Source: Stegostoma tigrinum (taxonomy: Eukaryota). Taken from it: 64,000 nucleotides of DNA. The notes below the pieces were generated by a model that did not search any database, had not been told where the DNA came from, and was given only the letters and a program-made list of their open reading frames with translations. Positions 6,501-56,200 of the stretch are shown one piece after another (positions within the stretch are counted from its first letter, which is position 1; each line of letters begins with the position of its first letter). The position numbers were made by a program, and so were the translations under genes. The stretch spans positions 28,413,114 through 28,477,113 of the forward strand of contig NC_081381.1 of the NCBI RefSeq assembly GCF_030684315.1, given 5' to 3'.

Positions 6501-9500
6501 ATAAATGATAATGCACTCAGAAATGTATCCTGCATTTATGTTGAGGCATCTAAGTCAACTTGCTCATTTGTGGAAAATGAGCAAGTTTCTCCAACATCCA
6601 CTTTGAAATATTTATTCAAAAAGTACGTTTTTGCAAAAACATATTAGCACAGATTAACCTACACAAGCCTCTGGGATAAATTTATTCAATCTTTATTACT
6701 TGGTCACATCAATTTGCATTTGAGAGCAGAAGTTACTTAAAAATAACACTAACCTCTCCCTCTTACAAATTTCCCAGAAAAACTCCAGATTTACCTGCAA
6801 CCTCTGCAAAGCCTAAACTCAGGTAATAATCTGGCTTTTGATTTGAATAATCTGATCTGCTGGCTTGCTGCCTTTCTAAATTTCAAGAACTTGTCAAAGC
6901 CTGGGAGACACAAGCAGAATCAGTTGCAGATTCCTACCAAACCAGGGTAACTGCCCAATGAAAAGGGAAGGTGGGAAGGTGAAGTGAGAAGGTGAGAAAG
7001 TGGAAGTAAAGTGAAGCTCTGGCACTAATTACCTCAACAAGTTGTGATTTTTACACATCTGTTGGGTCCTACTTGACTTTAGTGACAGCCTTGTCCAGGA
7101 TCTCAAAATAGCTACAAGAAATATTACAGAACTGTGAATCAGGTTAGGTTATTTGGCTCTTGAATTATTTTCTCCTCCATCTCCAACTCACTTGCACCCA
7201 ATGAGGAAAATAAATCAAGAATGATGTACAAACAATTATATTAGTGTCAATTTAAACCACTCTTGGCAATAAGCATTGCAATAAAATTCAGCAAACATAG
7301 CTCCTCCAACAAGGAAGCTGGAACTAACCAGAATATTACAGGTCATTTACCTCGAATTCATTCTTTAAGGGTCTTAGAATCTGTATTAGCGCAAGACAAC
7401 ATTACAATTTGGAAACAAAGAATTAACCAGGGCCTCATCAACAGACAGTACCAAGTTCATATTAGGCTAGACTTGAAGAACCTGATGAAGAAATCGAAGG
7501 ATTAGTAAAGGAAATCCAATGGTTAGCAATCTTCAAAATTACTTGATCATTTGCCACCAAAGTGAGAAGAGAGATGACGAGGGACTAACCTAAGGAGAAA
7601 GTGGAAGTAAAGAAAGCGCAGAGATAAACTGATAAGGGAGTGCTGTTGCCAATGGGTCTGAATTTAGGTTTTCCTTGTCCTCTGTACTTCAAAACGTGGA
7701 CTTGAGGAGATAGCGCCTGAAATTTTCTGAACAAACTAAAACACACAAAAGCAGGTGGGAAAGAGATGATGGATTGTGAAAACTAGATCAGGACATAGAT
7801 CAGTGGGAACACGGAAAGGTAACAAGCATTAAACGGTAAGGTCTTCGAGGGAAATAAAGTAATGTTTGGAGTATCACGTACAACTTTGGGAACTTCATTT
7901 CAGAAAGAAAACAAAAGAAAAAAGGAGCAGTCAAATTAGTGGAAGAGTGACTGAACAAATAAGCAGGATGGCCAGCAAATTATAACAAGGACACAAATTT
8001 AAGAGATAATTTAATTTAATAATAGAATAATTTAAAGGAGAGTAGAAATACATGTTTGTATAGGGAAACATTAGAATGGGAAATTCTGTTACTAACTAAT
8101 TTTGAAGCAGATTCTGTAAATCCCTTTTAAAAAGGGAAGAAAACATCTGGGGATGCAAAATATTGAAGTGTTTGAGTATGAGCAGGAAGTGGGGTCAAAG
8201 TATGATGAGTTAGTAAGGCACTTTTGGGCTGCAATATCATTATGATTTTCTCCTCCACCACCCCGGCCCCCCACCCCGTGGAAACCCATACACAAACTAT
8301 TTTCTGCTTCATCCAGTCTGTCCCAATGTCACAGGAACTCATGAAATTTCAACAGCGTTACAAAATAGGGGATTAGGCCAAGGCTTTCCTTTCCTACCCA
8401 CTTTCTTTCATATCAAAGCATCTTCTTTTTCACTGTCACATTTAGATGTTTCTTCTACTGAACTGAAGTGCCAAATGACTTAGATCCAGAAGCAAACAGC
8501 TCCACTTAGTCTGCAATGTCCCAGGATCCTCTGAAGTTCATAATCTAATACTGTTCAAAATGCATAATTTTCGTCATCACTATAAACTAATTGTGTTTCA
8601 AATTTAACCCTGCATATCTGTTCAAAAGTCAGAGACAAGATACAACTAACATTCAGTCTCAGTCAGTTTCTGCTTTCAGAACTGAGGCAAATAGACGTTA
8701 TTCTTGTTTAACTCAGCTGGTACAATTAATTTTGTTTAATGGTCCAGATAAGGGGAATTAGCAGGACAGAAGATGTTAAAATGAAAACTTGTATTAATTA
8801 GATGCGATTCTGCAAGGGAAATGGCCACAAATCTACAATTGCAACATTGAGTAATTTAATCACTTTGTACCTAGAACTCAAAGTACTACATTTGAAAAAC
8901 AAAGTGGTATGTAAAATTCCTGAAAATGAACAGTCGTCAATCTGACGCTCGGCTTCTTATCCAAAATTTGCTCATCCATAGTATTTCTAATACTTGCTCC
9001 TGTTTCAAAACATCTATTGCCAAAATATTAATTTACAATTGTCAGCTTCAAAATCAGCTCTTCCAATACTCTCCTGACCAGACTCCCATCCTTACAAATT
9101 TCAGCTTACCCAAAACAGATGTCCCTATCCTGCTTTCAAGCTGCTTCTGACACTCCGGACTTCAGTAAACGATATTGGATTCCAATCCACCAATAAAAAT
9201 TCTCATTATCATGTTTCATCTCACCACTTTCCATCAAGGAATGCATGAGGGAACTGCAACAACTGTTTATTCTTAGATTCTCCAGCAGTTTCTACTATCT
9301 GAGGTAACAAGGTGTAGAGCCAGATGAACACAGCAAGCCAAGCAACAACAGAGGAGCAGGAAAGCTGACGTTACAGATCTGGACCCTTTTTCAGAAACGT
9401 TCTTGTCTGGCACAAAAGCAAAATGGGTGAAAGAGCCATTACATGGCTAACAAAGGAAATTAGAGATTGGATCCGATCCAAGGAGGAAACTACAGATTGG

Positions 9501-53200: not shown

Positions 53201-56200
53201 GTGAAGAGCAGGCGTAAACCTATCGAGACTGCTGCTATCCCAGATGGTTATCGCCGTTTTCCCACCCACTCTCCTTTTGTCTGCATTCTTTTAGGGCGTA
53301 AAGAAAATCCGCTTATCTCAGCCCCAGTTAAGACTTAAGAGCAGAGGCAGGTTATTCACCACGTCGAGTTTGAGGATCTTTGTTATTGAAGCAGGATTTC
53401 AGAGCTTCGCTTTCAAAGAATGGTTAGAGAACAAAAGGGGGACATATCGTCTATCGCCATCCTACCTACCTTTCCAGCCCCACTCCTCCTTTCTCTATTT
53501 ATTTCAGAGCTCTCCTTCCCCTCCCCCATTTCTGAAGAAGGGTCCTGACCTGAAACGTCAGTTTTCCTGCTCCTCTGGTGCTGCCTGACCTGCTGTGTTC
53601 ATCCTGCTCCACACTGTTATCGCCAGTTCAACTCTGGCTGGTTGTCTACGGCAGTCCCAGTTGATTCAGACTCTCCAAATAGCCACGCACGTATTTACCG
53701 TCTGGCGCTTAACCAATTCTCTTTTTGAAAGCCATCCTTTTAACACTGCTATATCCAGATCACACGCTGAGTAAAAGTTGTTTATACTCCTGTTATATAT
53801 TCTCTGATAGAGGAAAGGTGTTTTTAAACTTCAAAGGGTTCAGAAAATACTAACAACGATGTCCCTTGAGTTAGCAGATTTCAGCTGCGGGGAGAGGCTG
53901 AATAGGCTGGACTATTTTCTCTGGAGCATCGGAGGATCCAGGGAAAATAGCCTAATAGAGGTTTTGTAAAATCACGAGGGGTATGGATAGGGTAAATAGC
54001 CAAGGTCTTTTTCTCAGGGAAGGGGAGTCCAAAAGTAGAGGCACAGGTTTAAAGTAACAGGAGAAAGATTTAAAAGTGGTAACTTTTTGACACAGACGGT
54101 GGTGCATGTATGCAATGAGCTGCCAGAAGAAGTGGTGGAGGCTGGTACAATTACAACATTGAAAAGGCATCTGGATGGGTATATGAATAGGAAGGATTTA
54201 GAAGGATATGAGCCAAATGCTGGTAAATGGGTTTAGATTAATTTAGGATGTCTGGTCAGCATGGATACGTTGGACCAAAGGGTCTGTTTCTATGCTGTCT
54301 AACTCCATTACCGTCACTTTGGTCCATTTCGTAGTCTGTGCGTTGATTCTCAATCTTTCCACCTATGGATACAGGCCCTGTCTAGCTGCACTGTCTTGTC
54401 TCCTTGTGGTTTTGAACATCTATCAAATTTACTTAACGTTTTCTTCCTTGATTTTGTGCTAATTCTTGCTTCTTTCTGTATCTTAAAGTAAAGATTGCAA
54501 CAAAAGTGAATCCATGGGATGGGAAAACACTGAAAGCAGAGAGTGTCCGAAATCAGTTCAGAACATCATTGGAACACCTGCAAAGGGAGACCGTTGAGAT
54601 CCTATACCTTCATGCCCCAGACCATGAGACTCCAATAGAAGAAACACTAGCTGCTTGTCAGGAACTTTACCAACAGGTACAACGTGGATATTTGAGTTCA
54701 ACACTGAGCATGTGGGCATGAGGTACAGGCAAGGAATATTAGAGTGTGGAATGGGAATGGGAGCTATTTGGCTCATCGGGTCTGTCATCTTGATGAAATA
54801 ACTATTTGACTAGTCTCATTTGCCATAGTATATTGAGCAATGCAGTACCAAGTGAGTACAAAATTATTGGAAGTACAGCTGTTAGGATGAGGTGCTAAAT
54901 ACAGGTCCTATCCTTCTGTGAGAGTTGCTCAGGGGGTATTAAAGATCCCATCAGGATATATCAGAAATATCTGCTAATATCATGGCCAACATTACTCCTT
55001 CAAAGGCATGTAAAGATTAACATCATTGGGTCTTGAGAAAAAATATTTAAATATTACTGCCTTTCAGAGTGACTTGCTGCATGGAAAGGCTTTGAGCAGT
55101 TTTTCAGTTTGCATGTCTTTGATAGAAATCCTGCCCTCACTGCAGAATAATGATGTGGCTTGTGTTTGATGTTCTAGCAGCTGTGAAATAACTTGCAGAA
55201 AATCAGAATGTTTTAACATGGATTTTGTTTTAGGGGAAGTTTAAAGAACTTGGCCTCTCGAACTATGCTTCATGGGAAGTAGCAGAGGTGTGTTCAATCT
55301 GTAAACATAATGGATGGGTCCTTCCCACAATTTATCAGGTATGTCAGGGAGCAAGATTGGCAACGGCTGACCTGCTGGTGGAGGATCTCATTCTGGGCTT
55401 TGCCTTTATTGTACCCAGCTGAGTCTTCTCTTCTATGCCTGAATGAATTATAATATTACTTTATTTAGTTATTTGATCACAGGATATGGATTTCAATGGT
55501 TAGGCCTGCATTACTGCTTTTTAATCTATGACAACACAATCTAATCATCCTCCCATGCTCTACTATCTGTAGACGAGGTCGTCCAAAACTCTGTTACTAA
55601 TGCCTTAGGTTGCACTGAGCTCTCTTTACCCAACACACCAATGCTTGCTAAACAACATTGATTTTTAGTTTAGGAAGGGTTCAATAGTTATCAATCCTTG
55701 TTTACAATCTATTCCAGAACCTTGCCCTTACATTTCTTGTGTCTTTTCCTCCCCTTTTTCCCAAGGATATTTGCTGCTCCTCCAATTCTGAATTTCTGAG
55801 CTTCCCTCGCATTTCTCTTTCCTGCTTTAAGATGTTTCTTAATCCTTTTCCCTTCGTCCAAACATTTGGCTACCTGCTTTAATATCTCCTTATGTGATTC
55901 AGTGTCAGATTTTTGTAACTTGAAACGTATCATAAAGTGATGCAGCGTAGAGTACACCCTTTGACCCATTGAATCTGTACCAACCTATCTCCACTAATCC
56001 CACTTTCCAGGACTTGGCCCATATCCTTGAATGTCACATTTAAACTGCTCATCCATGTATGTTTTAAAGGTTGTGAAGTTTTCTGTCTCTAATGCCTTCC
56101 TTGGCAATGCATCCAAATCCCACTACTCTCTTGGTGGAAAATATTTCCTCAAATCCTGTCTAAACTTCTTGCCCTTCACCTTAAATTATGCTTCCTCGCT

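Follow-up and report, generated by a model that had tools for sequence, protein, structure and literature searches.

Hammerhead Motifs and Genes in the Window

The window analyzed here, a stretch of 64,000 nucleotides from Stegostoma tigrinum (contig NC_081381.1, 28.41–28.48 Mb, of a 3.2 Gb assembly), contains hammerhead ribozyme motifs carried by Penelope-like elements (PLEs), scattered mostly within introns of conserved genes. From the junctions that inserted copies of these elements form with flanking DNA, we hold with good confidence that the 5' ends of short insertions mark two RNA ends, namely a capped start before the ribozyme and, less often, the predicted cut. The genes, identified by Pfam matches (448 of 519 candidate frames scanned, plus 2 more), are AGTRAP, DRAXIN, MAD2L2, an AKR7A-like gene, and an MRTO4-like gene. 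Their names lean partly on synteny that we assume, and we take their order (as listed, 335–63311) to correspond to two separate blocks of human 1p36.

A hammerhead motif is present at all 16 sites of the original prediction, which gave minus-strand copies by their low coordinate; their C3 positions are 10841, 43719, 46658, 19519, 49505, 9394, 16824, 23407, and 28788, and those of the plus-strand motifs are 13584, 37782, 53532, 20018, 40923, 46916, and 51097. The sorting into intact, variant, and decayed copies mostly stood, with the exception of 16824, where an intact core accompanies a broken stem II; the motif at 49505 (minus) lacks the ACGU palindrome. Three further family ends, broken off within the ribozyme (12298 minus, 12299 plus, and 20266 plus), had been missed, and the family-wise census comes to 19 ribozyme-bearing ends in 64 kb, or one per 3.4 kb. 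A strict descriptor (core, stem II of at least 4 bp, palindromic 15.2–16.2, UH) finds seven sites in the window, whereas 300 dinucleotide shuffles average 0.023 and never exceed 1. An Rfam scan of the window gave no hammerhead match at E ≤ 10, with four unrelated weak matches, so that the Rfam check originally proposed is blind to these variants.

The features are as follows; element positions count from 0, the first base after the predicted cut, with C3 of family A at -28.

43591–46582, minus: 5'-truncated young Neptune-type PLE, with a reverse transcriptase (RT) frame at 46548–44206 and a GIY-YIG frame at 44411–43944
43747–43753, minus: TATA-like box of family A1, 34 nt before C3, a putative promoter from which transcription would start near 43723
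43692–43719, minus: intact family A1 hammerhead with the ACGU palindrome and stem II GGGU/GCCC; it would be cut after the GUC at 43692
43591–43691, minus: family A post-cleavage segment, in which a long-range stem spans +16 to +82 and 3' ends fall at two points
10714–13675, both orientations: composite inverted family A insertion within a CR1-like long interspersed nuclear element (LINE) RT fragment
10814–10841, minus, and 13584–13611, plus: intact hammerheads of this composite insertion
12215–12414, both orientations: nested head-to-head family A mini insertion (200 bp), both arms truncated inside stem II (-20 and -19)
37782–37809, plus: family A2 hammerhead, intact, with a perfectly palindromic stem II region; the copy begins 4 nt before C3
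53532–53559, plus: family A2 hammerhead with an intact core, in sense orientation within intron 1 of the AKR7A-like gene
16797–16824, minus: family A2 hammerhead, intact core, broken stem II
9367–9394, minus: family A2 decayed stub, beginning 3 nt before C3
40923–40950, plus: family A decayed hammerhead, below a Neptune-type linker/GIY-YIG fragment
46625–46658, minus: family B (Poseidon-type) hammerhead, intact, stem II GUCACC/GGUGAC, with a TATA box at 46706–46699
46916–46949, plus: inverted partner of this family B copy, G12 lost
51097–51130, plus: family B decayed hammerhead, below a Poseidon-type endonuclease fragment
19491–19519, minus: family C hammerhead in sense orientation within the last DRAXIN intron, with an AAGCUU palindrome and a U at position 17
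20018–20047, plus: decayed inverted partner of this family C copy
20266–20371, plus: family D stub, truncated 9 nt before the cut site
23378–23407, minus: family D decayed hammerhead
28759–28788, minus: family D decayed hammerhead that closes a 1.3-kb Neptune-type RT/endonuclease remnant at its 3' end
49476–49505, minus: family D hammerhead, palindrome mutated

The mini insertion at 12215–12414 is nested in the family A composite with an apparent duplication of ~16 bp. Unclassified interspersed repeats that recur in the genome sample described below lie at 3789–5835, 22763–23432, 49983–50550, 53801–54315, 55929–56754, and 59635–61080.

Carrier Elements

The motifs are the ends of four PLE families, three of Neptune type (A, C, and D, all below Neptune-type sequence) and one of Poseidon type (B, below a Poseidon-type endonuclease), in agreement with the several parallel ribozyme-bearing lineages that had been proposed. 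The family A motif terminates a long open reading frame (ORF) in which a CX4CxxC linker joins RT to a GIY-YIG domain; Pfam gave a weak RT match on this frame and did not match the GIY-YIG domain. Similarity to the linker or endonuclease lies upstream in five of eight long family D copies, and linker-bearing related sequence in five of nine family C loci. Translations of family B (locus L065 and window positions 49900–51097) have a GIY-YIG endonuclease at their C terminus, without a zinc-finger linker, and a C-terminal motif which we take to resemble Poseidon. Clades were assigned by the linker criterion of PMC8557442, as given in its accessible text.

The 5' end of family A is visible in three of the 11 other long copies fetched (L098, L106, and L108), which share the order hammerhead, 101 nt, and ORF start ~30 nt further on. 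A full element thus consists of hammerhead, 101 nt, ORF start, RT–linker–GIY-YIG, a 3' untranslated region (UTR) with the TATA-like box, hammerhead, and tail. L108 is a tandem element, the full-length copy L098 begins at C3, and family A as a whole displays the tandem pseudo-long terminal repeats (pseudo-LTRs), the inverted 5' copy, and the optional tail. The tail is defined by the 3' ends of young copies, which fall at +62–67 or +98–101; a head-to-head inverted partner accompanies 101 of the 171 young family A copies. The N-terminal coding region contains a tandem repeat of variable length (ADGTPPT-like units, 46304–46420), which differs between copies.

The young element at 43591–46582 runs from its coding frames through the 3' UTR and hammerhead to a 101-nt end with tail, and sits in the tail of a family B copy (46586–47010) with a 10-bp target duplication. 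The two adjacent ribozymes therefore belong to different elements, and the idea that A and B motifs flank a single element was rejected; it is also ruled out by the A motif that other long A copies carry at their 5' end.

Ribozyme Features and Predicted Folds

The majority sequences of all four families keep the core CUGANGA...GAAA..UH, and in all of them the first pair of stem II is G10.1–C11.1, with a bulged base after A9. Stem II is otherwise wholly different between families while core and pairing are retained, as had been claimed: It reads GGGU/GCCC in A, GGGUC/GACCC in D, the GGAGC/GCUCC type in C, and GUYACC/GGUGAC in B, with pairs that covary by eye. Helix III is indeed reduced to a palindrome, ACGU in A, B, and D and AGCU (AAGCUU) in C, and stem I comprises 2 bp in A, 4 bp in D, and 3–4 bp in B, and is weak in C. 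By these defining sequence features the motifs are minimal type-I hammerheads, with catalysis predicted.

The lowest-energy predicted fold is a hairpin in which C3 would pair with G+1, with its foot at +1. The family A stem II region (e.g., 37790–37801) is a perfect or near-perfect palindrome of 12 nt, and the predicted family A homodimer pairs through this palindrome and not through helix III. Below the cut lies a long-range stem, different in sequence in A/D, B, and C, which was reached by only 2–3 of 300 shuffles in four of seven tests; it was not significant in the other three sequences (19, 17, and 264 of 300 shuffles reached it). This stem brackets the first of the two putative RT start points considered below.

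Genome-Wide Abundance

Core patterns that impose no stem II pairing match 192,189 times genome-wide with the ACGU palindrome (1,137 in the control) and 6,220 times with AGCU (166 in the control), which leaves ~197,000 intact cores above control, or ~1 per 16 kb. The exact family A pattern, which demands stem II pairing, occurs 93,439 times against 0 in the control. A genome sample totaling 1.76 Mb, taken as 176 stretches of 10 kb at even spacing along large contigs, holds 592 family ends (A1 221, A2 181, D 143, B 28, and C 19). This density of one per 3.0 kb is slightly higher than the one motif per 4–5 kb first estimated, and extrapolates to ~1 million family ends, mostly decayed. Core and palindrome are intact in 92 of 151 motif-spanning copies of A1, 21 of 98 of A2, 8 of 69 of D, 7 of 18 of B, and 0 of 5 of C. 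Most copies are dead stubs.

Junctions at a Putative Capped Start

Young family A copies at risk of ending there have their 5' junction between -36 and -20 in 57 of 136 cases, against 2.8 expected from the upstream rate (P ~5e-53), and no young family A 5' junction falls between -35 and -51. Twelve of these 57 copies are solo insertions with target duplications of at least 7 nt (control rate 1.8%), so that they represent true insertion ends. In the first 100 of 12,782 genome matches, -32 is the commonest junction (19 rows), 4 nt before C3, and a single row lies upstream of -34. The family A TATA-like box begins 30 nt above this mode, and the sampled A2 and D copies also cluster at TATA+27 to +33.

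A G precedes the -32 junction in 3,693 cases, as against 716 with A or T, where a ratio of 0.36:1 was expected. Among the first 100 rows with G, 27 are blunt head-to-head joints, 11 could have received the G from the partner arm, and 62 are unexplained by the partner; in a local control, G precedes 13 of 19 junctions but 11 of 54 long truncations (p=4e-4). Family B has its box 47 nt before C3 and its junction mode 17 nt before C3, which is again TATA+30 (22 of the first 100 of 605 rows, among which 14 have the extra G; the remaining rows are spread out, about a dozen being indel-shifted copies). The displaced mode of family B indicates that the peak follows the promoter and not the edge of the ribozyme. 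An extra G at the 5' junctions of full-length L1 copies is an accepted sign of a copied cap (PMC11702581, accessible text). Junction peak and extra G together are thus likely to mark a capped RNA start just before the ribozyme.

Junctions at the Predicted Cut and Tandem Arrays

A smaller cluster of junctions comprises 22 of the 171 young family A copies, at 0 to +10, with 2 at -1 to -16. Among 100 of 7,645 genome rows, 34 begin at 0, with 17 earlier (-5 to -1) and 49 later (+1 to +8); a spike at the cut read from the 34 rows by themselves was set aside, since 21 of them are positionally ambiguous. With the palindrome filtered out, there are 567 exact junctions at 0 and 235 at +2 (both lists include some small indels), a ~3.8-fold excess of 0 over +2 after allowing for filter pass rates of ~0.28 and 0.44.

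Of 100 rows with their junction at 0, 17 are preceded by the tail of the element itself, oriented alike. We fetched 12 tandem loci, which form arrays with six units at most, each extending from 0 to +52–70 or +97–106, mostly framed by apparent target duplications and with 0–2 added bases and at most 1 nt of homology per joint. Nine of the 11 unselected tail-to-unit joints restart exactly at the cut, and the other two align from +4 and +7 after local base changes. Ten of the 12 loci have no complete core; only L201 repeats the core, and it repeats the capped end with its G. L208 joins a cut-end unit to a long copy. Three loci (L199, L206, and L207) are arrays of five to six post-cut units with 99–100% identity and variable added bases, like reiterative repeat synthesis, and L095:9524–9911 consists of seven 58-bp units from the post-cut segment of an older A subfamily. 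The arrays are best read as RT having reached a physical RNA end at the cut and then re-primed. The second junction class likely records the predicted cut of the ribozyme, and would be evidence of cutting in the living animal.

Host Genes and Selection on the Core

The location of the motifs mostly in introns of conserved genes was correctly predicted: 16 of 19 lie in introns within coding spans (five each in AGTRAP, DRAXIN, and MAD2L2, one in the AKR7A-like gene). There is no enrichment, given that coding spans cover ~72% of the window and 13.7 intronic motifs are expected; of the intact intronic cores, three are sense and three antisense to the host gene.

Cores are lost at the rate of their flanks in long copies, with 15 losses against 12.6 expected in 94 copies of A1 and 16 against 15.8 in 34 copies of A2. 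The excess core conservation over flanking sequence that had been proposed as a test among genomic copies is therefore absent in long copies, and the test is misplaced, as conservation is visible between families and not among inserted copies. An apparent two-fold excess vanished once long copies were used, base types matched, and subfamily sites dropped. A deficit of core changes persists in the short-copy sets (33 vs. 66.8 in A2, 35 vs. 47.5 in D, and 17 vs. 24.7 in A1), whose alignment favors copies with an intact core. The core was under selection in the master elements, not in the insertions. Neutral decay and an intron share that matches gene density indicate no host role, and the genomic stubs are by-products without host function.

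Proposed Mechanism and Alternative Explanations

In tandem copies, the box in the upstream 3' UTR very probably starts a capped messenger RNA (mRNA) 30 nt downstream, and with this start the ribozyme would form the first 30–50 nt of the mRNA. RT would start internally, ~65 or 100 nt below the cut site, as suggested by the two fixed 3' ends and by published in vitro work on the anole element discussed below. A start in the 5' copy of the repeat would let it run off the RNA 5' end after ~100–130 nt and leave stubs, and the joining of two such run-off cDNAs would give the head-to-head inverted pairs. Most templates would be uncut. It is quite probable that a minority of the short ones, very roughly a quarter to a third, were cut at GUC, and that RT jumping from the cut end back to its start point produced the arrays of post-cut segments. 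Cleavage would need a dimer or an element protein, as the monomer is predicted to fold as the inactive hairpin; dispersed and opposite-strand copies supply no dimer partner within one transcript, and together with the inactive predicted folds this would explain how sense intronic copies may be tolerated. A cut 32 nt from the cap would also decap the RNA and might switch it from message to template or decay, a speculative step that we regard as somewhat doubtful. The fullest form of the proposal, to which we give slightly less than an even chance, is that Penelope RT recopies the 5' end of its own RNA in a telomerase-like manner, jumping from the capped or self-cut end to the tail start and so regenerating the pseudo-LTR and partial tandems, with the hammerhead as a self-decapping switch.

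Several points weigh against this proposal. The evidence for both cap and cut comes from genomic junctions; rows were tallied by hand on the first 100 of each genome search, and 11 of the 12 tandem loci were picked from rows with one joint at the cut. The cut peak is broad, with 49 of 100 rows at +1 to +8 and another 17 at -5 to -1. Of the 34 rows assigned to 0, 21 are palindromic joints unplaceable between 0 and +2, and several more have microhomology. The family A box is a variant of TATA and the B1 box starts with G, the 19 copies of family C are too few to reveal a junction peak, and the local family B sample (26 copies) is also small. Stem I of family A has only 2 bp, families C and D have U at position 17, which makes a poor cleavage triplet, and the predicted monomer and homodimer folds differ from the active fold. 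In the anole element, according to the accessible text of PMC11167929, no RNA-seq reads ended at the cut, and insertion in vitro proceeded normally with core mutants.

These points bear most directly on the cut. The cap footprint could be real and the cut-class junctions the product of RT stalling at the foot of the ribozyme hairpin, combined with palindromic joining, with little or no cutting in vivo. Such stalling would fit the predicted hairpin with its foot at +1, the spread of 49 of 100 junctions across +1 to +8 and the 21 of 100 that are ambiguous palindromes, the lack of cut ends in the anole RNA-seq (PMC11167929), and the low in vitro cleavage of minimal hammerheads (PMC4209133), both as far as the accessible texts of these papers go. 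It is nevertheless unlikely, as junctions at 0 outnumber those at +2 ~3.8-fold once the palindromic joints are removed, array units begin again at 0 with 0–2 added bases and at most 1 nt of homology, and the stronger stem II palindromes draw few junctions (2 of 138 at -10 to -19). The upstream peak might likewise reflect RT drop-off at the 5' edge of the ribozyme structure instead of a transcription start, given that it lies within ~7 nt of C3 in A, A2, C, and D and in family D coincides with the 5' edge of the 4-bp stem I. We consider this highly improbable, because the family B peak lies 17 nt before C3 and tracks the TATA box, the excess of an added G, seen in both A and B, is not shared by long truncations, and the edge of the peak is one-sided.

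The short copies could also constitute an independent family resembling short interspersed nuclear elements or retrozymes, spread from short master genes or circular RNAs, as their very high copy number, length of ~100–135 nt, and target duplications would allow, and animal retrozymes do derive from pseudo-LTRs (bioRxiv 10.64898/2026.07.22.740005, accessible text). This is decidedly unlikely: Short copies have no upstream box, the full-length element L098 starts at the same point, subfamily variants are common to short and long copies, and the cut-start arrays have no core and vary in the bases added at their joints, unlike copies of circles. Co-option of intronic hammerheads to regulate host transcripts is suggested by the 16 of 19 motifs in introns of four conserved genes, three with intact cores in sense orientation, but is hardly credible in view of the intron share expected from coverage (13.7), the lack of strand bias (3 vs. 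3), and the neutral decay of cores in long copies.

Comparison with Known Systems

The link between these ribozymes and PLEs is already known, and it is the junction record for which we found no counterpart in print. The published text to which we had access, which leaves aside subscription papers, Repbase, and supplements that may list some, contained nothing on shark PLE hammerheads at this scale, nor on cap or cut footprints in PLE junctions. In vivo cleavage was not seen in the one element in which it was tested, according to the accessible text of PMC11167929. Drawing on thousands of natural events, the junction record yields predictions, exact to the base, of the cut and of the transcription start in two clades, and it suggests a route to tandem formation. 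A vertebrate is also shown to tolerate about one intact hammerhead core per 16 kb, including sense intronic copies, which fits inactivity of the monomer. If RT does recopy the RNA 5' end as proposed, this would be the largest ribozyme population that we found reported, together with a fossil record of minimal-hammerhead cleavage in vivo.

Papers are cited below for the parts of their text accessible to us. Minimal hammerheads in metazoan PLE pseudo-LTRs were described by Cervera and De la Pena (2014; PMC4209133), as the original prediction had stated, and the features of that class recur here: the core, the bulged base between 9 and 10.1, the G10.1–C11.1 pair, the palindromic 15.2–16.2, and the short stem I. 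Shared as well are the many families per genome, mostly as single copies, and the close pairs on opposite strands. The copy number of ~197,000 compares with ~9,000 in Xenopus and ~4,000 in the coelacanth, counted there with a descriptor that also required stems; that paper, which makes no mention of sharks in its accessible parts, maps no RNA ends and offers no evidence of in vivo cleavage.

A functional comparison is offered by the Poseidon element PAc of the anole Anolis carolinensis (Frangieh et al. 2024; PMC11167929), in which two adjacent internal RT starts likewise define a tail. Both DNA strands are cut and extended there, uncut RNA is the dominant substrate, in line with the mostly uncut templates proposed here, and the ribozyme needs protein. 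The PAc ORF starts inside the ribozyme, whereas that of family A starts ~130 nt below the cut, and that study reports no cap or cut footprint in genomic junctions. The families resemble endonuclease-containing PLEs in general (PMC8557442, PMC3846280, and PMC2377424) in the C-terminal GIY-YIG, the CX2-5CxxC linker (in A, C, and D), the inverted 5'-truncated repeat, the optional tail of 30–40 nt, and the pseudo-LTR promoter. A putative TATA and initiator were noted in Adineta Pen2a (Craig et al. 2021; Arkhipova et al. 2013; Schostak et al. 2008), whereas Drosophila Penelope is TATA-less and its start is separated from the ribozyme by an intron; here transcription would begin directly before the ribozyme. 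In this literature the function of the ribozyme was called unclear (PMC8557442), and no obvious mechanism was seen for regeneration of the pseudo-LTR (PMC2377424).

Non-LTR retrozymes (Li et al. 2026; bioRxiv 10.64898/2026.07.22.740005), reported from one chondrichthyan, are similarly non-coding repeats derived from pseudo-LTRs with type-I hammerheads. They are, however, tandem units each with a ribozyme, with at most 14,255 copies (in the axolotl), whereas the copies described here are dispersed stubs and the cut-start arrays carry no core. Assignment to that class was rejected, given the dispersed or inverted copies in the window and the 10 of 12 tandem loci without a complete core. As in L1 (PMC11702581), an untemplated G at a fixed 5' junction is read as a copied cap; unlike in full-length L1, the extra G here marks PLE stubs of 100–130 nt.

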